The notes under the pieces: generated by a model | Seen by the model: only the letters and a program-made list of their open reading frames with translations | The model's database searches: none | Told to the model about the DNA's origin: nothing | Made by a program: the position numbers and the translations under genes | Part shown: one piece after another, positions 11,000-58,046 of the stretch | Layout of the letters: the number at the start of each line of letters is the position of its first letter | Numbering within the stretch: position 1 is the stretch's first letter | Source: Syntrophales bacterium | GTDB lineage: Bacteria > Desulfobacterota > Syntrophia > Syntrophales > UBA2210 | DNA: 64,000 bases | NCBI GenBank assembly: GCA_963662405.2 | Contig: CAXXKT010000001.1 | Location: 384,001-448,000 of the forward strand | Direction: 5' to 3'

Positions 11000-12256
11000 T
11001 TAAGGCATTGTTTTGTCAACCAATTTATTCAACAGTTTGTACAATTCGTTTTCTTTGCTTGTCCAAAATCTGAACGGGGCAAATCCAATTCTATTACCTT
11101 TCACTTCCTGCTTCTTTAGATCAACATTTTCTCGAACCCGTTCCGAGTAATATGGTTCATCATATATCTTTTTGAGTGAATCCATTGAAAATTCGAGAAT
11201 TCGCTCTTCATATTTGGATAAATCGAAGTTCCTCCTTAAGAGTTCAGTATGAGCTTCTATAGACAACGCTACCGTAGTCTTAAAAGCATAACGTTCATGA
11301 GACTTGCGAATAGAGCTGAACTGCGAAACGCAGAAAAAAAGATAGTAAGCTATTGGGAGTGTGTAAAGGAATCTAAGATAAAATTCATATGATAAATTCT
11401 GAATACTCCAGTTGTTACACCAAATTTGTCCAACTAAAATCAAAAGTATTAACAAAAACCAAATAACTGACAAAGAACGCACGCTTGTATACCATTTACC
11501 AAGCTCGTTAAAGAGGGCTTTACGACGCTCATCAAATGCACCGGCCATTGTTTTGTTTGTGGCAATTTCATATAAATTAGAGATTTTGTTGTTTGTCTCT
11601 GTGGCTTCACTCAAGATGGCCTGTATTAGTTCATTAGAATTTTCTGATTTTTCAAGTAGACTATTGATCTTGTTGGAGTGCTCTTGACATATTTTGAGTA
11701 TTTTATCGATTTCAGAATGAGATAATTGCGTTTCCTCTAACTTGGACTTCATTAAGCTTAATAGATCTTTGGCTTTGTCAACATTGATATTAATATTATC
11801 AAGGCCAATAGAGATAAGCTCTTCATTGTTTCTTGCTTTAGCCTCTATTGATTTTATGGATGCCGATATTTTTCTTATCGACTGAATGGTGGCCCTAAAT
11901 TCCGTATTTACTTCTTTTATCCGTTTTTTTCTCTCCTCTAAATCCTTTCGAAAAGTGTCTGCTTCAGCTAGTGCTTTTTTTAACCCTGTTTTTCGGTTCA
12001 AGATTTTCTCACGAAGGGGAAGGAACGATTCTTTATAAAATGTTTCTGCACGTTCAAGCTTCTGAGAAATAAGTCTTTGCTCTCTTCGATATTTTTTAAG
12101 AACAAAATTCGCATCCGTTTGAATTTTATTTAGCTGATCAATAAGGGATTTAATTTGTTTGTCTTTTTTAGATAGGTTTTGACTGGTACGTTGAGCTTCC
12201 GAGTATATAGATTTTATCTCATCAAGTTGTTGCATGGCTTTTTCTTTTTTGTTCAT
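11000..12256 (-). CDS. Long coiled-coil protein with two C-terminal transmembrane helices
   Basis: About 240 aa of heptad-rich sequence, then AGAFDERR, two TM helices and HERYAFK; AT-rich. Confidence 0.8.
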   Translation of the reverse strand: MNKKEKAMQQLDEIKSIYSEAQRTSQNLSKKDKQIKSLIDQLNKIQTDANFVLKKYRREQRLISQKLERAETFYKESFLPLREKILNRKTGLKKALAEADTFRKDLEERKKRIKEVNTEFRATIQSIRKISASIKSIEAKARNNEELISIGLDNININVDKAKDLLSLMKSKLEETQLSHSEIDKILKICQEHSNKINSLLEKSENSNELIQAILSEATETNNKISNLYEIATNKTMAGAFDERRKALFNELGKWYTSVRSLSVIWFLLILLILVGQIWCNNWSIQNLSYEFYLRFLYTLPIAYYLFFCVSQFSSIRKSHERYAFKTTVALSIEAHTELLRRNFDLSKYEERILEFSMDSLKKIYDEPYYSERVRENVDLKKQEVKGNRIGFAPFRFWTSKENELYKLLNKLVDKTMP

Positions 12257-12290
12257 CGCAAATCTCCCAATCAATAAGAGTGCTGTGAAT

Positions 12291-12444
12291 AAAAAAGCCC
12301 CATCTCTCGTTTTGAGAAACAGGGCTTTCGATGATCAGACCATAATCCCCCCTCGGTTATTACAGCTGTTCAGAAGCTAATCAGAAAAACACAATCAAGA
12401 TCAAAACATGAAAAACCACTACCTCCCTTACGCCATCCTGTCAA
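12291..12444 (-). promoter_or_regulatory. Micro-ORF/terminator leader element, copy E (divergent)
   Basis: TTGACA...GGAGGTA, then GAGGGGGG-att-ATGGTCTGA (12343-12335), then hairpin 12328-12291 with U-tract. Confidence 0.75.
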
Positions 12445-12500
12445 GTAGTATTGTCCGTTTCCTCGGCTTCCCGCGCCGGCAGGGGGCCGAGTGCGGCCCC

Positions 12501-13613: not shown

Positions 13614-13803
13614 CTTCTGAACTGCGGATGGCCTGTGTTTGATTTTGGAAAATATGTAAGTGAGTTTTGCATCATGCGTGTATGATACAAAGAAAGGTGT
13701 TCTTTAATCAACATCACGGTTGAGACTTCTGCCGGGAGCTTTTTGAAACCATAAGGAACGGGAAAACTCAGAAGATAAACAGGGAAAAGCGTCCTCTAAC
13801 TAT

Positions 13804-13871
13804 AAAAGCTCTATCGTTTTTTGAAAAACAAAACTCTTGATTATCAAACCATACTCCTACCACCCGGTCAA
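13804..13871 (-). promoter_or_regulatory. Micro-ORF/terminator leader element, copy G (internally shortened)
   Basis: TTGACCGG...AGGAG-t-ATGGTTTGA (13852-13844), then a G.U-rich hairpin ending CGATAGAGCTTTT. Confidence 0.55.
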
Positions 13872-48082: not shown

Positions 48083-48490
48083 CTAAGTTTGGACAACAAA
48101 GTCCCCAACCTGTACCTCTTCAAGCTTAAGCAAGAAAGTATTTCCTGGAGTGATCGTTTCTGTAACCGTCTCTGGCTGAACAAAGGTACTAAACAAATCC
48201 AATCCTTTTCGAGTTCGCTCCTTTACTATTTCTTTAGTGTCAGGGTGCTTCCCATAACCACATGATTTTAGGGTGCTGATCTTTTCTTGTACGTGTGTGG
48301 CTTCGGCTTTGCCTTTGACTATTTCAAGTTTTTCTAATTCCTCTTTTGTTTCTGGATCAACAATTGTTTCACCCAGACCGATAATAATAAACTTGTCGCC
48401 TTGATTTATGCCCCCGTTTCTTCCCTTATTAATAACAACGGTATAAGGATCAACTACCTTTAAAACCTTTGCAATATATTTGTCAGGCAT
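48083..48490 (-). CDS. Hypothetical beta-rich protein resembling the FlgT C-terminal domain
   Basis: VVINKGRNGGINQGDKF...IVDPETKEEL...VQEKIS; AT-rich. Confidence 0.6.
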   Translation of the reverse strand: MPDKYIAKVLKVVDPYTVVINKGRNGGINQGDKFIIIGLGETIVDPETKEELEKLEIVKGKAEATHVQEKISTLKSCGYGKHPDTKEIVKERTRKGLDLFSTFVQPETVTETITPGNTFLLKLEEVQVGDFVVQT

Positions 48491-49007
48491 TATTCTCCTC
48501 CTGTTGATCAAGTTCTGAAAGAATACTAAATGGTATGACTGGTCTGATTATAATATTGTTCAACTGGGACATAATGGAAGATATTGAAGCCTCGTCGATC
48601 AACTCCTTAATAATCTTTATTTGTATAAGTTTTTCTTGTACGTGATGTACAACGCCCACCAGAGCGACTCTTTCAACACCGTCTTCTACCATGTAACATC
48701 CAACAACAATGTTGTTAAGAAAATTTTCATTTTTCCTAATGATGAGTATTTTCTCTTTGTTAAGAAATTTAATGGGAGATTCTTGGCTGGGCACAAGCTT
48801 TCTCGATTGCCAAATATCAAAAATTACTTTCAGAAGGATAAAACAAGCAGAAAGCAATAATAACAATGTAAAAAGAAGCCATTTAATTGAAATTTGGGTA
48901 TTAATATCTATGAATAGTTGCGTAATTCCGGAAAGAAATCCAATAACACCCAAGGTGATTGAAAGACCTGATAAACTAAAAAAATGTTTCTTTATTTCTT
49001 CACGCAT
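48483..49007 (-). CDS. Hypothetical two-TM protein
   Basis: Two N-terminal TM helices plus a soluble beta domain; overlaps the next start; AT-rich. Confidence 0.7.
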   Translation of the reverse strand: MREEIKKHFFSLSGLSITLGVIGFLSGITQLFIDINTQISIKWLLFTLLLLLSACFILLKVIFDIWQSRKLVPSQESPIKFLNKEKILIIRKNENFLNNIVVGCYMVEDGVERVALVGVVHHVQEKLIQIKIIKELIDEASISSIMSQLNNIIIRPVIPFSILSELDQQEENNA

Positions 49008-49084
49008 GCTTACTTTAAACCCTAGCAAGTAGTCTAAACTAGAGGCGTTTCCCGTATTAATTTACAACACATTCCCTATCACAA

Positions 49085-49250
49085 CACACAAAAGCCCCAT
49101 CGCTCGGGTTCGAGTAACGGGGCTTTTCGCAATCAGACCATACGCGCTCCTTTGTGTTTGAGGTGCGGGCCGGACAGGTAAAGCTAACAAAAAACAAGTT
49201 CGTAATGAAATCGAAGGGAAGGATACCTCCCCGGGGGATTCCGGTCAAGG
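49085..49250 (-). promoter_or_regulatory. Micro-ORF/terminator leader element, copy A
   Basis: TTGACC(49248)-17-TATCCT; AAGGAG-5 nt-ATGGTCTGA (49141-49133); hairpin 49127-49090. Confidence 0.85.
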
Positions 49251-49306
49251 ATTTAATTACAGCCCGAGGCATCAAAAAAGGAACCATGGGCCTTTTTTCT
49301 CCTCAC

Positions 49307-50566
49307 CTATGGTGGCCCTCCGTACGTACATGGCGAAGCAGGATCGGGCGCCCGAACATGGCGATGATTACCAGGAGACCGAAGCGGGTCAGTTTGGATC
49401 AGGCGAATAATCAGGGCAACCGATGCGGAGGCGCTGGCCAGCGCGCCAAACCCTGTGAAGACCCGCGCACCCACCCGTTCCCGAAACGCGAGGCCGCATA
49501 CGACGGTAAAAGTGAACAGAAATGCGAGGCTGGCAGCTTCAACGAGGGTGGTGAGCGCCCCGAAAACGGAGAGGATCGCCGCCAGCGCGCCGAGTACTAT
49601 CACCGCCCGGTTCGGTATGCCTGCCTTGTTCTTGTGATCGAGGGCGGCCGGCAACTCACTGTCTTCCGCAACCTCATAGACGAGCCGCGCTGTTGCAAAG
49701 AGCGTCGAATTGATGGCCGATCCGGTAGAGAACGCCGCGGCAATCGTCACAATGACGAGGCCGGCGGTCCCGAGTGCCTGCCGGCCCGCGATGGCAAGAG
49801 CCACTTCCTGGTGCTGCATAACCTGGTCCGCCCCGATCAGCATCACCGTCCCCAGCGCGACCACGATGTACACACCGATCACGGCAATGATGGCCGACAG
49901 CACCGCGAGCGGGAGGGTTTTCCGCGGGTTATCGATATCATCATAATCGTAGGTCAGCAGCTGAAAACCCTCATAGGCCATAAACACGGAGGCCGCGCCG
50001 AATAACGCCGCGCCGATCCCCGTGTCCGGCACGTTCCGGGAGAGCATCGGCGGGTCCCACTGGGCAAGCCCCCACCCCGCCAGCCCCACAAGAACGACTA
50101 TCTTGAACCACACGAGAAAGACCTCGACACCGCCGGCTTCACCGACGCCGCGCAGATTCAAGCAAATGAACGCAATCAGGATGGCAACGGCGGCCGCGCG
50201 CGGGAACCACGGTCCCAGACCGGCAACATACCCGAGGTACTGCCCGAAGGTGGAGGCGTATACCGCGTTTGTCAGCACATACCCGACGATGAGCACCCAC
50301 GAAAGGCTGCCGGCGGCCCCCTCCGCGTTGATCTCGCGGAGAAACGTGAACGCGCCTCCCCCTTCGCCGTAGTAATCGGCCAGTTTTACGTAGCTGTATC
50401 CCGTGGCCAGGGCGATGAGGCCGGCAGCCAGGAAACTGAGCCATGTCAATGCGCCGGCGATTCCGACAACGACGCCGAGTGTGGAAAAGATGCCGCCGCC
50501 GATCATACCGCCGACGGCCATCGACCATGTGGCGTTGAAATTAAGCTTGGTTTGAGGCTGATTCAT
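49307..50566 (-). CDS. APC family amino-acid permease, frameshifted near the 3' end
   Basis: AVGGMIGGGIF, EGGGAF, FMAYEGF; last TM helix lies in another frame. Confidence 0.85.
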   Translation of the reverse strand: MNQPQTKLNFNATWSMAVGGMIGGGIFSTLGVVVGIAGALTWLSFLAAGLIALATGYSYVKLADYYGEGGGAFTFLREINAEGAAGSLSWVLIVGYVLTNAVYASTFGQYLGYVAGLGPWFPRAAAVAILIAFICLNLRGVGEAGGVEVFLVWFKIVVLVGLAGWGLAQWDPPMLSRNVPDTGIGAALFGAASVFMAYEGFQLLTYDYDDIDNPRKTLPLAVLSAIIAVIGVYIVVALGTVMLIGADQVMQHQEVALAIAGRQALGTAGLVIVTIAAAFSTGSAINSTLFATARLVYEVAEDSELPAALDHKNKAGIPNRAVIVLGALAAILSVFGALTTLVEAASLAFLFTFTVVCGLAFRERVGARVFTGFGALASASASVALIIRLIQTDPLRSPGNHRHVRAPDPASPCTYGGPP

Positions 50567-50644
50567 GGTAAATTAGGGACACTTCCCTATTTTTTACAAA
50601 TTTCTTTTTATCTGTTTTGGCCTCTCAGCCATCCCCGTCACAAA

Positions 50645-50806
50645 ACACAAAAGCCCCATCGCTCGGGTTCGAGTAATGGGGCTTTTCGCAGTCAGACCAT
50701 ACGCGCTCCCTTTTGTGTATGAGGTGCGGGCCGGATGGGTAAAACTAAAAAAGTTTGTAATGAAATCAAAAGAAAGGATACCTCCCCCCGAGGATTCCGG
50801 TCAAGG
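50645..50806 (-). promoter_or_regulatory. Micro-ORF/terminator leader element, copy B
   Basis: TTGACC-18-TATCCT; AGGGAG-ATGGTCTGA (50700-50692); hairpin 50686-50649. Confidence 0.85.
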
Positions 50807-50874
50807 ATTTTATCGCGGACCGGGGTGTCGGTTCCGGAGCGCAACGGGTTCCATCGAATCGTTCCGACAATCCT

Positions 50875-51936
50875 TCACTGTTTGTCCAGCAACCCATCAT
50901 CGAGTATCTGCTGGAAATGGTCTTTCACGGTCTGCTCGACGGGGATATACGACATGCCCAGATCTGTCTTGCTGTAAGAGCTATCGAGTCTGATATGAAT
51001 CCCGACATTTCTGCTCGCAAATTTCCGCGTGTAGCCCATCACCGGGGCAATGAGCCAGAACAGGAATTTGGGGGCCTGTCTCCGGGGAAACGGATACCGG
51101 TCTCCAAAATGTTTTCGAAGGATATTCGCTATATCGAGAAGCGATACTTCTTCACTCACGACGATGTGCCGCCCGCTCGCTTCCGGGGTGTACCCCGCCT
51201 TGACGTGGGCGGACGCCACGTCACGCACATCAACGATACAACTGTACAATTCCGGAACCCCGGTTTTGTAGATACCATTGCCAAAGAGGATCATGGTGTT
51301 GATGCTCATGGAGTCTTTCCTCTTCGACAGAGAAGGGCCAAGGATCCATCCGGGGTTGATCGTCAGCAGATCCCATTGCTCCTGTTCCGCGGCGAGAGCC
51401 CAGGCTTCTCTTTCCGCGATTGTCTTTGAATAGTTATAGGGCTGGTGGTCGGCACTGCTCGTGACGTTCCATTCCTTTTCAGTGAGTATGCCCTCCGGGG
51501 CCAGCGCCATGTCGGCATTGTCGCCGTATATCGCCACGACACTGCTGGTGAGCACCACCCGCTTCATCGTCGGGGTTCTTTGCGCCGATTCGAGGACATT
51601 GCGTGTCCCCTCTCTGGCCGGTCGTATCAATTCTTCTCCAGGATTCTTGATTCCGGTTATGAAGTAGGGTGAGGCGGTGTGCATCACCAGCTCGCACCCT
51701 CGCATCGGTTCATCGAAACTTCCCGGATTCAGAAGATCCGCCTTGAACAACGTCAACTGCCCGGTCGCTGTTTCCGCCAAGGCTTTCAGATGTTCGATCT
51801 TTTGCATATCCGAAGGGTCGCGTACCGTTGCGTGAACAGGGGTTCCCTCTTCCAGCAAGATCTTGATTATCCAGGAAGCCACGTAACCCGTACCCCCCGT
51901 AACCAATACCGGTTTGGTCTTATCGATTTCGCGCAT
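50875..51936 (-). CDS. NAD-dependent epimerase/dehydratase (dihydroflavonol-reductase-like)
   Basis: VTGGTGYVAS, HTASP, LTSS, YNYSK. Confidence 0.92.
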   Translation of the reverse strand: MREIDKTKPVLVTGGTGYVASWIIKILLEEGTPVHATVRDPSDMQKIEHLKALAETATGQLTLFKADLLNPGSFDEPMRGCELVMHTASPYFITGIKNPGEELIRPAREGTRNVLESAQRTPTMKRVVLTSSVVAIYGDNADMALAPEGILTEKEWNVTSSADHQPYNYSKTIAEREAWALAAEQEQWDLLTINPGWILGPSLSKRKDSMSINTMILFGNGIYKTGVPELYSCIVDVRDVASAHVKAGYTPEASGRHIVVSEEVSLLDIANILRKHFGDRYPFPRRQAPKFLFWLIAPVMGYTRKFASRNVGIHIRLDSSYSKTDLGMSYIPVEQTVKDHFQQILDDGLLDKQ

Positions 51937-52021
51937 GACACCCTCCTTATCTATCCTCGGAAACGCAGGTCTCCTCTCGAGTATTGGACAGGTTTCTCTT
52001 TTTCCGCCTTTACAATCACAA

Positions 52022-52185
52022 AACACAAAAGCCCCATCGCTCGGTTCGAGTAACGGGGCTTTTCGCAATCAGACCATACGCGCTCCTTTTATGTATCAGG
52101 TGCGGGCCGGACAGGTACAGCTAACAAACAAGCTCGTAATGAAATCAAAGGGAAGGATACCTCCCTGGGGGGATTCCGGTCAAGG
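52022..52185 (-). promoter_or_regulatory. Micro-ORF/terminator leader element, copy C
   Basis: TTGACC-18-TATCCT; AAGGAG-ATGGTCTGA (52077-52069); hairpin 52063-52027. Confidence 0.85.
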
Positions 52186-52415
52186 ATTTTATTGAAAGGG
52201 CGGGGTGCTCATAGGTTTCAGGCGGCACCGGGAGGTGGGGATCGATCGCCTGTCTGAACGAGAGGGTTGAGGGACGCCAGGCAGATCTTTCGGACAGCAT
52301 GAGGAGCTGTTTGCGGAGTTGATGCCGGTCGTATCCGCCCTCCTTGCCATACCATCCAAGTGGGGGTCAATGACTCTGTGGTGTTGATCGAGCTTGCCTA
52401 TGAGGTTCTGAGGTT

Positions 52416-52448
52416 AAAAAAACTCCGGCGAGCCGCTGCCCGCCGGAG
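52416..52448 (-). terminator. Intrinsic terminator
   Basis: CTCCGGCG...CGCCGGAG followed by T7 on the minus strand. Confidence 0.7.
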
Positions 52449-52515
52449 CGAGAAGATCCACTGACGTAACGAAGTAAAAAAAACGGCGTTGGTGACGAAA
52501 TGTCCTGACAGGCCT

Positions 52516-53097
52516 TTAGCTTACAGGTTTCTTGTCCTGAATTTTCCCCATCCGTTTTCCCAGCCAGTCTTTCAGCCTGTCAACAAGAGAAGGCTTTTTG
52601 AACGTGAGCTTTGTTTGCGCCGTCTTATCGGAACTCATGGACGTGACTTTGGCGGTATAGACACCAGCCGGAATAGTCGGTTGGGTAATGACAACAAACT
52701 GATTATATTTCCCGTCATCGGCATACGTGCCGCTGACGTTCCCTTTCAGGATTCCGGTGACCTTCGCGAGGGGGCCTATCGGGGCGGTAAATTGACCGGC
52801 GGCATCGACTTTTCCGTCAGCTACCACCACCTCGGTTTCATCAGGGCCAAAGAGCGTTACGAATACGGAATCTTCAGGCACGAATCCCGACCCTCCGAAT
52901 ACAATCTTTTGCTTCATCAATGTAGCAGCACCGAGACTGACGCATTCGGGGTTCACAATCAATTGAGGTCCCGTAATCTCAGGATCAAAGGTTTGTGGCC
53001 CGGCCGTACACCCGGTAAGCAGAAGGCCCCCTGTTACCCCCCATAACACTACCAGAAACAAAAACGCCAAAACCCTGCTTTTTTGAATGCTCAACAT
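52516..53097 (-). CDS. Putative lipoprotein with Ig-like domain
   Basis: LLTGC lipobox; GSGFVPEDSVFV. Confidence 0.75.
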   Translation of the reverse strand: MLSIQKSRVLAFLFLVVLWGVTGGLLLTGCTAGPQTFDPEITGPQLIVNPECVSLGAATLMKQKIVFGGSGFVPEDSVFVTLFGPDETEVVVADGKVDAAGQFTAPIGPLAKVTGILKGNVSGTYADDGKYNQFVVITQPTIPAGVYTAKVTSMSSDKTAQTKLTFKKPSLVDRLKDWLGKRMGKIQDKKPVS

Positions 53098-53299
53098 GTA
53101 AAGTCCCCCCCTGAGTTTTCAATTTATTATAGCATGGTGATGTAAGATGTGGTGCTCTTGTCGGCATGTGGCATTTCTACCGTAGGAACAGTATATTTTC
53201 TCGCGCAATATTTTTCAAGAGAAAATCATCGCTTTCGGATGAAATAGCGACAGCTCCCTCTGTATGGGACAATAAAAATTTGAAGTACAAGCTTCACAC

Positions 53300-53464
53300 G
53301 ACACAAAAGTCCCATCGCTCGGTTCGAGAAACGGGCTTTTCGCAATCAGGCCATAGGCGTTCCTTTTTGTTTGAAGTGCGGGCCGGACAGATACAGCCAG
53401 CAATAAAATAAGTTCGTAATGAAATCAAAAGGAAGGGTACCTCCCCGGGGGATGCCGGTCAAGG
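53300..53464 (-). promoter_or_regulatory. Micro-ORF/terminator leader element, copy D
   Basis: TTGACC-17-TACCCT; AAGGAA-ATGGCCTGA (53354-53346); hairpin 53340-53305. Confidence 0.8.
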
Positions 53465-53633
53465 GCTTTATCGAGGTGCATTTCGTATGGTGTATCAGTG
53501 ACCGAAGGGAAAAACCAGTTTCCCGCGAAGGACGAACCAACTGATTTCCCCGAGATTTTGACACTTCACACTAAATATCTTTGTCCTGCCATCCGATAGT
53601 GCTATAAAGCCCCGCAGTACAAGGAGGGGATAC

Positions 53634-55415
53634 ATGCGCGAACACTGGGATACCAAGCGGGCCTTCATTCTGGCGGCGATCGGATCGGCGATCGGACTGG
53701 GAAATATCTGGCGTTTCCCCTTCAAATGTTATGAAAACGGCGGCGGGGCGTTTCTCTTCGCCTATCTGATCGCCATGATCACGGCGGGGATTCCCCTCCT
53801 TATCATGGAGATGGGCATCGGTCACCGGTTCGGGCTGGCGGCACCACTCTCATGGAGGACAATCTCAAAAAAATATGAATGGATCGGCTGGTGGGCCGTG
53901 TTCGTATCGTTCGTTATCACCACCTACTACACGGTGGTAATGGCCTGGAGCCTGAATTTTTCTGTCTATTCCTTGAGCCAGGCATGGGGTGACAACCCGT
54001 CAGACTTTTTTTACAACTCATTTCTCCGACTCACGGACAGCCCTTTCAATCTGGGAGGGATACGCGTTCCAATCCTGGTTTCCCTGGCCGCGGCCTGGGT
54101 ACTGATTCTTGCCTCGATCTGGAAGGGCACCCGATCGGTTTCGAAAGTCGTTTATATCACGGTATTTCTGCCGTGGTTGATCCTGATCGTCTTTGTAATC
54201 AGAAGCGTCATGCTTCCGGGAGCCATGGAAGGACTCCATTATTATCTGTACCCCGTCATGGAAAAGCTCATGAATCCCCGTGTCTGGGTGGCGGCCTATG
54301 GGCAGGCCTTTTATTCGCTGTCCATCGGGTTCGGTCTGATTATCGCCTACGCCAGCTATCTCAAACGGGACACCGATATTGTCAGCAGCGCGGTCATCAT
54401 TGCATTGAGTGACGGCGCGACCGCCTTTGTCGGCGGCTTCGCCGTGTTCGGTTCACTGGGTTTTTATGCCCACCTGAATAACCTGCCCGTCACCGAGGTC
54501 TTACAGGGCGGACCGGGGTTGGCATTTGTAACGTATCCGGCGATCATTAATCAGTTGCCGTATTCATGGATCTTCGGGATCCTCTTTTTCCTGATGCTGA
54601 TTACCCTGGCGCTGGATTCCTGTTTTGCCCTGGTGGAATCCGTATCTTCGTCATTGAGGGATAAATTCGGCTGGGGCATTAAGAAATCCAACCTGCTTGT
54701 CGCCATTCCGGGATTTGTGGTCGGCATTATTTTCACGACCGGCGCGGGGTTGTACTGGCTCGATATCGTCGATAAGTGGATGGAGTTCTTTGGGCTGGGG
54801 ATGGTGATCCTCTTTGAAACGATTGTCATCGGGTGGTTTTACGATACGGGAGGTTTGCGGCAGTATGCCAACCGGCCCTCGGATATCAAGATCGGGAGGT
54901 CATGGGAAATCCTCTTGAAATATTTAATCCCGGTTGCACTGGCAATCCTCGTCGTCAGTGAAGGCATCCGGCTGATTCGCATCGGTTATGGTGATTACCC
55001 CGCTTCGGCACTGCTCATAGGAGGGTGGGGCGTGGCATTGATCCTGCCGGTTATTGCCTTCCTGGCCGCCAAGCTCAGAGGGAAAGAAAAATCCCTTTCC
55101 CCTTTGCCGGAGCCCGTGGAAGACCTGACCGATCAGACCGGTTTTCGTCACTATGCCCTTTTCCAGCGAGTCGTCATAGTTTTGATCGTGGTCACCTCTG
55201 TGGTTGCCCTTGTGGCCCGATGTTTTCCCCGTATGACACATTTCGTTGTCCCCGTTGTCATCATCACCATGGTTATCAGCCTCGTGGGGGGATCCGTGTA
55301 TTTTCTGAAAATCTCGTCGGGCAATTTTGAGAAACGGGAAGAATGGCGGGAAAGGTATGCATTGGATCAACAGAGAAGCAGTACCAATCGAGCCCGAAGG
55401 GGTTCCCGCCAATAA
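53634..55415 (+). CDS. Sodium-dependent transporter, NSS (SNF) family, with C-terminal extension
   Basis: GSAIGLGNIWRFP, NGGGAF, QAFYSLSIG, GPGLAF. Confidence 0.93.
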   Translation: MREHWDTKRAFILAAIGSAIGLGNIWRFPFKCYENGGGAFLFAYLIAMITAGIPLLIMEMGIGHRFGLAAPLSWRTISKKYEWIGWWAVFVSFVITTYYTVVMAWSLNFSVYSLSQAWGDNPSDFFYNSFLRLTDSPFNLGGIRVPILVSLAAAWVLILASIWKGTRSVSKVVYITVFLPWLILIVFVIRSVMLPGAMEGLHYYLYPVMEKLMNPRVWVAAYGQAFYSLSIGFGLIIAYASYLKRDTDIVSSAVIIALSDGATAFVGGFAVFGSLGFYAHLNNLPVTEVLQGGPGLAFVTYPAIINQLPYSWIFGILFFLMLITLALDSCFALVESVSSSLRDKFGWGIKKSNLLVAIPGFVVGIIFTTGAGLYWLDIVDKWMEFFGLGMVILFETIVIGWFYDTGGLRQYANRPSDIKIGRSWEILLKYLIPVALAILVVSEGIRLIRIGYGDYPASALLIGGWGVALILPVIAFLAAKLRGKEKSLSPLPEPVEDLTDQTGFRHYALFQRVVIVLIVVTSVVALVARCFPRMTHFVVPVVIITMVISLVGGSVYFLKISSGNFEKREEWRERYALDQQRSSTNRARRGSRQ

Positions 55416-57242: not shown

Positions 57243-57978
57243 GGGTCTTGACTAGAACAGCGGTTTATTTTTGAAGTTCTTTAACAACAATTTATAGATA
57301 TCGGTGTTACGGTTGTTGAACCGGAACTCACATTCCTTGAGATGCAGGTAAAAGGTTGATTGTGGAATACCATGGAACTTCATCAGCCTCCGTTTTGCGA
57401 ATGACCAGAAGGATTCAATGCCATTGATGTGGCTTTTCCCCCTGGCAAATTCATTGGCTCCGTGATGAACACGGTAATGCTTTTTGTATCCCAAGTCAAC
57501 CAAACCATCATAGCCTCTCCAACTATCTGAATGTATGACACTATTCGGTTCAACTTTGCCCCTGATAATGGCCTGGAGAGTCTTCCTGGCGCAATCGGGA
57601 ACGATTTCGGTATAGACACTGCCTTTTCGTTGCAGGATACCGAATACAGGGGTTTTTCTCCCGGCCCCACGGCCTCGTTTCCCTTTGATACGTTTTGCAC
57701 CGAAATATGATTCGTCAACCTCGATTTCACCCTGAAATGGTGATTCTTCTTCGCACAGATCAGCTATACGTTGACGAATCAAAGACAGATATCGATTCAC
57801 CGTATTTCTATTGAGTTTTGTTAAAAGAGCGATGGTTTGAGCATCCAAATCGAAGGCAAAATACTTCACGATCTCTCTAAATTTTGCCTCTGAAATTTTG
57901 GAATTTTTTACATACTTGTTACTTATTGACATGACTAGACTCTTAACATATTTCCGTGTGCTGTTCTAGTCAAGACCC
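57243..57978 (-). mobile_element. IS1595-family element (IS1016-like), 736 bp
   Basis: Perfect 19-bp inverted repeats GGGTCTTGACTAGAACAGC; 8-bp target-site duplication TAAAACAA (57235-57242, 57979-57986). Confidence 0.95.
57252..57932 (-). CDS. IS1595 family transposase
   Basis: EVDESYFG, GKRGRGA, HSDSWRGY, HINGIESFWS, HLKECEFRFN. Confidence 0.95.
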   Translation of the reverse strand: MSISNKYVKNSKISEAKFREIVKYFAFDLDAQTIALLTKLNRNTVNRYLSLIRQRIADLCEEESPFQGEIEVDESYFGAKRIKGKRGRGAGRKTPVFGILQRKGSVYTEIVPDCARKTLQAIIRGKVEPNSVIHSDSWRGYDGLVDLGYKKHYRVHHGANEFARGKSHINGIESFWSFAKRRLMKFHGIPQSTFYLHLKECEFRFNNRNTDIYKLLLKNFKNKPLF

Positions 57979-57982
57979 TAAA

Positions 57983-58046
57983 ACAAAAGCCCCGTTGCTC
58001 ATTTCGAGAAACGGGGCTCTTGTAATCGGTCCGTATGTGCTCGTTG
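57983..58046 (-). terminator. Decayed leader element copy F, hairpin intact
   Basis: GAGCCCCGTTTCTC-gaaat-GAGCAACGGGGCTTTT; micro-ORF position reads ACGGACCGA. Confidence 0.65.

Follow-up and report, generated by a model that had tools for sequence, protein, structure and literature searches.

A promoter-bearing leader with a two-codon reading frame and a terminator, copied ahead of accessory genes in Syntrophales: a candidate ribosome-occupancy attenuator

INTRODUCTION

The DNA treated here is a 64 000-nt stretch of a Syntrophales bacterium genome (assembly GCA_963662405.2, contig CAXXKT010000001.1, positions 384 001–448 000), hereafter the window. On the minus strand of window positions 48800–53700, four units of ~200 nt each stand ahead of a different gene. 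Each unit holds promoter motifs, a Shine–Dalgarno sequence (SD), a reading frame of two codons (the mini-ORF, for open reading frame) and a terminator hairpin. Why should such an arrangement be repeated before four different genes? An initial annotation, made from the sequence by eye, had described the units as a candidate new regulatory system, and we judge this to be a fair description. They belong to a real, large and previously undescribed family of cis-elements. That the promoter, leader and terminator form a genuine conserved unit with a selected mini-ORF we regard as very probable. As its function we propose a minimal form of transcription attenuation by ribosome occupancy, with the unit as a portable expression head, and give this reading a probability of about 0.5.

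THE UNIT AND ITS COPIES

Units A to D share one order of parts: TTGACC, 17 or 18 nt, TA(T/C)CCT, ~70 nt, GGAG, 5 nt, the mini-ORF, 5–6 nt and the terminator. The terminator appears in an inverted-repeat search as an imperfect hairpin with 17-nt arms, followed by a T-tract. The −10 element is TATCCT in copies A–C, all three of which scored as promoter-like in a promoter consensus scan; in copy D it was read directly from the sequence as TACCCT. The mini-ORF is ATG-GTC-TGA in A, B, C and a fifth complete copy, E, and ATG-GCC-TGA in D. The promoter, leader, SD, mini-ORF and terminator that had been claimed were thus all seen on the minus strand. The variation of one stem pair among G.U, A-U and G-C is likewise real, with the wobble pairs working on this strand only. 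Coordinates are collected in Table 1.

The seven copies first listed all exist, two of them decayed or partial. One, near 13850, has an SD, ATG-GTT-TGA and a weakened hairpin, with no recognisable promoter spacing. The other, near 58000, keeps the terminator hairpin, its start and stop codons having decayed to ACG-GAC-CGA. The figure of seven is nevertheless a large under-count, since the genome holds 54. A profile of the four window copies matched ~40 further places of the genome in its 3′ 70 nt, which hold the SD, mini-ORF and terminator. Alignment of these places identified them as the main family type, to which copy E belongs (its terminator has 16 bp in the predicted fold), and the four window copies as a G+C-richer subtype. 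A second profile (nhmmer, E<1e-4, >90 nt) found the 54 copies, spread over all three contigs of the 3.8-Mb genome, and a pattern search gave 27 matches there vs 0 for the reversed control. The common unit is ~165 nt long and consists of an A-rich stretch, TTGACA, 17 nt, an invariant TA and a ~115-nt leader ending in the terminator; a further ~110 nt upstream is common to ~20 copies. Twenty-two adjacent pairs of copies lie <12 kb apart.

PHYLOGENETIC DISTRIBUTION

We built a covariance model on the RNA part of the unit and applied it across the order at a threshold of E<=1e-4. The window's own family gave 285 matches in 30 of 38 genomes and 9 of 10 genera; the highest numbers per genome were 54, 31, 17 and 16, and one genus had a match in none of its six genomes. 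Across the order there were matches in 68 of 151 genomes, 38 of 62 genera and 19 of 24 families. A sample of the whole phylum, which represents the order by five genomes (two matching), added nine matching genomes of the same phylum from five families (f55, f61, f49, f69 and f82), one of them with 36 matches when searched alone. The sparseness of the phylum-wide matches indicates that the model is specific and that the element is patchy outside the order. Both ‘seven copies’ and ‘portable’ therefore understate a phylogenetically wide family.

A scan with the exact pattern, using one genome per species, found 38 loci, nearly all in Syntrophaceae, Syntrophales or related metagenome-assembled genomes. 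Five loci (L066, L069, L082, L068 and L090) lie on contigs binned as archaea, ‘Candidatus Theseobacter’ or Muribaculaceae; most likely these are mis-binned contigs or, for one of them, a chance match.

CONSERVATION OF THE MINI-ORF

If the mini-ORF matters, its start and stop should outlast the sequence around them in alignments larger than that of the window. With Henikoff weights on 100 unique sequences of the window's family, no triplet of the RNA is as well conserved as the start codon (A 0.95, U 0.97, G 0.90). The stop codon has values of 0.87, 0.86 and 0.93, and conservation also peaks in the G/C core of the terminator and its U-tract. Codon 2 is lower (0.78, 0.67, 0.84), and the spacer after the stop lies at 0.26–0.77. 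The sense codon varies freely among GTC, GCC, ATC, GAC, GAA and others.

Counted by copy, ATG is present in 41 of 44 copies of the same genome, and the exact two-codon frame in 36. The other genomes of the window's family have ATG in 75 and the exact frame in 70 of 85 copies. Outside this family but within the order, sequences were inspected for three families (f7, f12 and f13). Here ATG stands in all 30 copies and a two-codon frame in 28 (27 with TGA, one with TAG through an inserted A), with a different promoter sequence and a 5′ leader unrelated to that of the window's family. Start and stop are thus kept in the genome itself, in its family and in three other families.

A more distant clade (f55, f61 and f82) also differs in promoter and 5′ leader. 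Its core is AAGGAG, 5 nt and mostly ATG-GAA-GAA-TAA. ATG is kept in 29 of 33 copies, and the frame stops before the stem in 23 of 33, vs 12 and 3 of 33 for the other two frames. These stopped frames have 2–5 codons in 22 of 23 copies (three codons in 13) and end in TAA 18 times, TGA four times and TAG once. In this clade, too, ATG and a stop before the stem are kept, UAA being the usual stop. What all clades have in common, as read from their alignments, is a strong SD, a start, a very short frame, a stop and a terminator, and no particular RNA sequence, which argues against a sequence-specific protein site. In a distant-clade subgroup (L206, L207, L209, L212, L214 and L227) the ATG frame runs through the whole terminator, perhaps as a variant of the device that resembles pyrBI.

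Such a protein site is at the centre of another explanation, in which a NusG paralogue, an RNA-binding antiterminator or another RNA recognises UAUGNNCUGAU and releases the terminator, the start and stop being incidental. It would account for the conserved U before AUG and C before UGA, which go beyond what coding needs, and 29 of 38 family genomes have at least two NusG-domain matches. The distant clade, however, keeps SD, AUG, stop and terminator but not UAUGNNCUGAU, having GAUGGAAGAAUAA instead. A NusG paralogue also occurs in two of the six genomes of g4, a genus without copies of the element, so that there is no co-occurrence signal. We therefore find factor-dependent antitermination very doubtful.

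The spacing of the parts is kept as well. A purine-rich SD lies 3–6 nt 5′ of the start codon. Between the stop and the stem's first conserved C lie 9–10 nt in 62 of 72 canonical copies, and mostly 4–5 nt in the distant three-codon clade; because the distance is shorter where the frame has one codon more, AUG-to-stem stays at ~16–19 nt. A ribosome's footprint or toeprint reaches to ~+15 to +17 from the A of AUG, and 9–10 nt past a stop codon in the A site. A ribosome on the mini-ORF would thus reach the foot of the hairpin, which fits the measured distances. The arrangement is that of an occlusion attenuator, with SD and start 5′ of the terminator and the terminator's 5′ arm within the ribosome footprint of the leader ORF.

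STRUCTURE OF THE LEADER RNA

Among the helices tested, covariation supports the terminator only. In the 100 unique relatives its pairs are 84–100% standard, with double changes at pair 79-107 in 15 sequences and at pair 90-96 in nine. Many exchanges are of G.U to G-C or A-U, as at pair 83-103 (UG 39, UA 30, CG 20) and pair 84-102 (GU 48, GC 33). Predicted folds give terminator stems of 13–16 bp. RNAalifold on 30 sequences of other families returned three pairs only, on a MAFFT alignment with misaligned loops.

Several other helices were considered. A hairpin GAUUAU/AUCAUC would enclose the mini-ORF, and its pairs are 11–97% standard; the AUG and UGA bases never co-vary and the helix is absent in other clades, so it is rejected as the cause of AUG/UGA conservation. 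An extended hairpin UGAACAGCUGUAA / UUAUGGUCUGAUCA, joining the AUG…UGA stretch to an upstream segment, is predicted for copy E and in analogous form for A and C. Against shuffled upstream sequence its mean z is −0.30, with three of 100 sequences below −2, and it is not supported. Pairing of the SD with the 5′ arm of the terminator, as an antiterminator, reaches at most 4 bp, leaves two positions almost never paired and is rejected. Pairing of the 5′ end with UGAUCA, like the three helices before it, is accounted for by sequence conservation and not by compensatory change. Sequestration of the SD by upstream CCCU-like motifs gave a mean z of 0.0 overall and −0.55 in other families, in a test window ill-suited to short loops. 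We accordingly claim neither an antiterminator nor a sensor domain for the leader.

In copies A–D an inverted repeat, GGGGAGG-TAT-CCTTCCC, straddles the −10 element (Table 1). Such a repeat might serve a dimeric repressor as its operator; were transcription to begin further upstream, it might instead form a 5′ stem-loop.

IDENTITY OF THE ELEMENT

A search of Rfam 15 gave no match at the gathering score in the whole window and none at E<=1 in region 48900–53600, which bears out the earlier impression that the element is no named Rfam family. No terminal inverted repeats were found at the ends of the units. The terminator hairpin is the sole inverted repeat of at least 10 nt within each unit, and the few other pairs are short and not at the ends. 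Lacking terminal inverted repeats that would bound it, the unit is not a miniature inverted-repeat transposable element, nor is it the end of an insertion sequence (IS), a possibility that the initial annotation had named as fatal to its claim.

A selenocysteine reading of the UGA, with a selenocysteine insertion sequence (SECIS), was also rejected: the frame past UGA is not kept, copies differ by a 1-nt indel 3′ of the stop, and frames of the distant clade mostly end in UAA.

The genome has an intact intI and one broken by a TAA (Table 1). None of the 54 leader copies adjoins either gene, and in a blastn comparison the DNA near intI showed no similarity to that 3′ of the leaders; the leader is thus not part of a canonical integron platform, and it may head orphan arrays. 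A class 1 integron platform has a Pc promoter, attI and the short ORF-11. Like it, the present element is a promoter-bearing head where acquired genes sit; unlike it, the element is not beside intI, and most copies head single genes.

In the published literature on mini-ORF attenuators, ampC-type attenuators and intergenic RNAs of Syntrophaceae, as far as our search reached (most subscription journals lie outside it), the element is not described.

CARGO GENES AND GENOMIC CONTEXT

Within 700 nt downstream, the first ORF of 150 aa or more is co-oriented with the leader in 44 of the 54 copies, opposite in six and lacking in four, which speaks for an arrangement in cis. This bears on the possibility that the terminated ~115-nt RNA is itself the product, as a multi-copy small RNA (sRNA), a sponge for ribosomes or an RNA chaperone, or a trans-acting regulator, with cargo expression as leakage. 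Each unit has its own promoter and a predicted strong terminator, there are 54 near-identical transcription units in one genome, and the ten copies that face an opposite ORF or have none nearby would be natural for such an RNA. The placement of a trans-acting sRNA should be independent of the orientation of the next gene, however, and the 44 co-oriented copies speak for dependence. Between clades the 5′ two-thirds of the RNA are not conserved, so that only SD, mini-ORF and terminator remain, and no conserved single-stranded seed is evident besides the ribosome-binding site. We consider an sRNA function quite improbable.

The genes at the head of the cargo are of unrelated Pfam families: HNH, AAA_15/21, protein kinase, DUF5677, Mrr_cat, TIR_2, patatin, DUF2971, UvrD, HD-GYP (three), GGDEF (two), Lcl_C (two), MscS, amino-acid permease, epimerase and others, and 24 of 53 head genes have no Pfam family. 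PADLOC matched GajA (1e-224), PD-Lambda-5_A (6e-133), ThsB (2e-111), PDC-S31 (1e-39), PDC-M14A (6e-23), NERD+UvrD/GajB-like (3e-22), mad6/PD-T4-6 kinase (4e-21), Ppl (4e-18), PDC-S02 (3e-11) and a type IV restriction enzyme (2e-9). The cargo thus includes genes of Gabija, Thoeris and PD-Lambda-5 as well as HD-GYP and GGDEF genes. Other genomes have a similarly mixed cargo, with KAP NTPase, DUF4062, TIR, SIR2, XhoI, FRG and TnsA-like endonuclease, and also MFS, MscL and acyl-CoA enzymes. The element marks accessory-gene clusters.

So many similar promoter units ahead of proteins from unrelated Pfam families is what defines putative mobile promoters, for which Nijveen, Matus-Garcia and van Passel (2012; PMC3575422) describe, in the portion of their article available to us, highly similar promoter regions ahead of non-homologous genes. 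The present unit shares with these, so far as that portion describes them, the reuse of a near-identical promoter region upstream of non-homologous genes. It differs in adding a conserved, translated-looking leader and a terminator, and in being conserved across an order rather than a recent copy.

Alternatively, the unit may be a constitutive expression head or insulator, with a portable promoter and a leaky terminator that give acquired genes a low, fixed expression. Nothing would be sensed, and SD and mini-ORF would merely stabilise the leader or be carried along. The whole unit, promoter included, has indeed been copied ahead of unrelated accessory genes in the manner of such mobile promoters, and no sensing structure was detected among the helices tested. 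Left unexplained are the survival of SD, AUG, short frame, stop and stem distance where the promoter and the rest of the leader are replaced, and the rank of AUG as the most conserved triplet. We hold a purely constitutive head to be rather unlikely.

Several sequences near the leaders recur. In three copies (L002, L015 and L020) the same ~230-nt sequence is fused at one point of the ~110-nt upstream module (…CTAC/TACTGCTCAG…). It has the look of the terminus of a single inserted element, perhaps an insertion sequence, and the recurrent fusion point suggests site-specific insertion into the module. An IS110/IS116-family transposase lies 3′ of a different copy (L051). The flank directly 3′ of the T-tract of the copy near 58000 (GGGTCTTGACTAGAACAGC; window 57932–58000) is identical in the copy at C3:212041 and probably represents one end of an insertion sequence, inserted twice at the same leader position; in the window a 226-aa ORF (57252-57932) comes after it. 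Four copies start ~50–150 nt from an apparent tRNA 3′ end (GGTTCGA...CCA), a proximity that would fit islands integrated at tRNA genes. Other short repeated modules stand between terminator and cargo start in many copies (for example L010, L014, L007, L019, L011, L015 and L035), and in the window at ~49040–49070 and ~50570–50600. The kinds seen 3′ of the terminator are a GTATTATGCGG...CCGCATAAC-type hairpin, a TTATCAGGATCCAGATAAACATTGTTG motif and a AATTAATACGGGAAGTGTCCCTAGTTT motif, which may be attI- or attC-like.

Table 1. Positions of the leader copies, their parts, cargo genes and associated features. Numbers without a prefix are window positions; those with C1 or C2 are genome positions
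Feature	Position	Strand	Basis or remark
Copy A, whole unit	49079..49254	-	nhmmer E 3e-24, promoter scan, inverted repeat
Copy A, promoter	-35 49248-49243; -10 49225-49220	-	
Copy A, SD GGAG	49150-49147	-	
Copy A, mini-ORF ATG-GTC-TGA	49141-49133	-	
Copy A, terminator arms	49127-49111 and 49106-49090	-	T-tract after
Copy B, whole unit	50638..50813	-	nhmmer E 1e-22, promoter scan
Copy B, parts	-35 start 50804; -10 end 50775; ATG-GTC-TGA 50700-50692; terminator ~50686-50641	-	
Copy C, whole unit	52016..52191	-	nhmmer E 2e-27, promoter scan
Copy C, parts	-35 start 52183; -10 end 52154; ATG-GTC-TGA 52077-52069; terminator ~52063-52018	-	
Copy D, whole unit	53294..53471	-	nhmmer E 1e-22
Copy D, parts	TTGACC 53462-53457; TACCCT 53439-53434; ATG-GCC-TGA 53354-53346; terminator ~53340-53299	-	
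Copy E, complete, main genome-wide type	12286..12453	-	nhmmer E 5e-37
Copy E, parts	TTGACA 12444-12439; ATG-GTC-TGA 12343-12335; terminator ~12328-12289	-	
Partial decayed copy near 13850	13802..13869	-	nhmmer E 0.2 only
Same copy, ATG-GTT-TGA	13852-13844	-	
3′-module-only copy near 58000	57978..58035	-	nhmmer E 1e-9, model positions 104-162
Inverted repeat over -10, copies A-D	49216-49232; 50766-50791; 52149-52166; 53429-53446		
Cargo of A	48483..49028	-	181-aa predicted membrane protein, no Pfam family
Cargo of B	49307..50566	-	419-aa amino-acid permease, AA_permease_2 E 4e-42
Cargo of C	50875..51936	-	353-aa NAD-dependent epimerase/dehydratase, E 5e-23
Cargo of D	52516..53097	-	193 aa, lipoprotein-like N-terminus, no Pfam family
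Cargo of E	11000..12274	-	424-aa ORF, no Pfam family
Intact intI	C1:2211990-2212934		
Broken intI	C1:30608-31553		broken by a TAA
Copies with ~230-nt fusion (L002, L015, L020)	C1 near 1415721, 158489, 306414		
Copies near apparent tRNA 3′ ends	C1 near 1880779, 2539194, 2335828; C2 near 323321		sequence reading

PROPOSED MECHANISM

In the ribosome-occupancy attenuator that we propose, a sigma-70-type promoter would drive a ~115-nt leader whose invariant core is a strong SD, a start, one or two sense codons, a stop and an intrinsic terminator. By default, RNA polymerase would halt at the terminator and a short RNA would be released. If a ribosome sits on the mini-ORF while the terminator is being synthesized, either on the start codon or detained on the stop codon, its leading edge would mask the A-rich foot of the hairpin together with the G-C pairs that open the 5′ arm. 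So masked, the hairpin could not close beside the U-tract, and transcription would continue into the cargo gene. Cargo expression would then track the supply of initiation-competent ribosomes, or how long they dwell on a frame that is too short for them to leave the SD behind. Going by the minigene literature, a two- or three-codon frame behind a strong SD may keep the SD/anti-SD contact at the stop codon and so prolong the stay. We infer a working promoter and terminator, translation of the mini-ORF, and read-through as an effect of occupancy.

The initial annotation had proposed ribosome occlusion together with sensing of initiation or RF2-termination kinetics. Conservation and geometry speak for the occlusion part, and three outcomes that the annotation had named as refuting it (a known RNA family, an IS end, and loss of start and stop in larger alignments) did not come about. 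The RF2-specific version is not general, because the distant clade stops at UAA in 18 of 23 copies, and mostly after three codons.

Several observations weigh against ribosome occupancy as the function. The canonical frame is absent in 8 of 44 copies of the same genome, 15 of 85 of the family and 10 of 33 of the distant clade, and some of the minority frames run into the stem. Where TGA is lost, another stop precedes the stem in only ~8 of ~22 copies, not clearly above chance, and changes from TGA to TAA are rare (two). Coding does not explain the conservation of the U before AUG (0.82) and the C before UGA (0.84). Recent copying, and not selection, might account for much of the conservation within a genome. 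Candidate helices that would sequester SD or AUG are 65–85% paired with few compensations, no stronger than in shuffles, and no antiterminator or pause element was found among the candidate helices tested. The ribosome would have to load within the ~70 nt between SD and U-tract, a putative kinetic step; promoter, terminator, translation and read-through are themselves predictions.

COMPARISON WITH KNOWN SYSTEMS

In E. coli, ampC has an SD and an AUG-stop ahead of a terminator and is under growth-rate control, and pyrBI is likewise a ribosome-occlusion attenuator. The element resembles both in having a ribosome-binding site and a very short or terminator-overlapping frame directly 5′ of an intrinsic terminator, and in the proposal that read-through needs a ribosome physically preventing the hairpin. 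Those are single enterobacterial loci, however, whereas here there are 54 copies in one genome and 285 matches in one bacterial family, and the present element carries its own promoter, has a frame of one or two sense codons and stands ahead of accessory and defence genes. Homology is excluded, the sequences being unrelated. The available part of one review credits ampC with ‘a strong attenuator’ (PMC11024256).

Leader ORFs are coupled to intrinsic terminators in other systems too. The trp, his, leu and thr operons have leader-peptide attenuators, and antibiotic-responsive attenuators with upstream ORFs (uORFs) have been found by Term-seq. The coupling is the same, although translation is here predicted. 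The present element differs in lacking regulatory codons and in a frame of 2–5 codons whose sense codon is free to change; the pair of antiterminator and anti-antiterminator of the trp type was not detected.

Two-codon minigenes are known from bar of phage lambda. Others act as leader regulatory elements, as the accessible text on axe-txe (PMC8708949) and the LEE1 leader (PMC3262186) indicates. SD, start, one sense codon and stop as a regulatory element of a leader are common to these and to the present unit. As far as those texts go, the minigenes act on translation of a neighbouring gene or via peptidyl-tRNA drop-off, and none is described there with a terminator or as a multi-copy portable unit.

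IMPLICATIONS

A wider reading is that the leaders form one regulon-wide translation-status sensor for >50 accessory loci per cell, among them the complete-looking heads of Gabija, Thoeris, PD-Lambda-5 and other defence systems, and enzymes of cyclic di-GMP (c-di-GMP) metabolism. One and the same terminator would keep all loci silent until ribosomes linger on the mini-ORF, and they would then be switched on together; such lingering could come, for instance, after phage takeover, a shortage of release factor or recycling, or exposure to ribosome-targeting toxins or antibiotics. We regard this as possible but unlikely. If it were true, the leaders would act as a common alarm for defence islands at the level of RNA, and no shorter translated attenuator would be known.

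If the proposed attenuation mechanism is true, it would be a minimal form of translation-coupled transcription attenuation, with a frame of two or three codons and no antiterminator. The unit would then be the first known portable promoter-bearing attenuator, reused hundreds of times across an order of syntrophic anaerobes, and would offer synthetic biology a compact natural part that combines a promoter with a ribosome-gated terminator. It would give many anti-phage defence systems and second-messenger enzymes a common regulatory input. With so many members, the family could also be used to annotate, by covariance model, genomes whose sites of this kind now lack an annotated RNA regulator. 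Should the element prove to be no more than a constitutive head, it still marks accessory-gene insertion points in these genomes.

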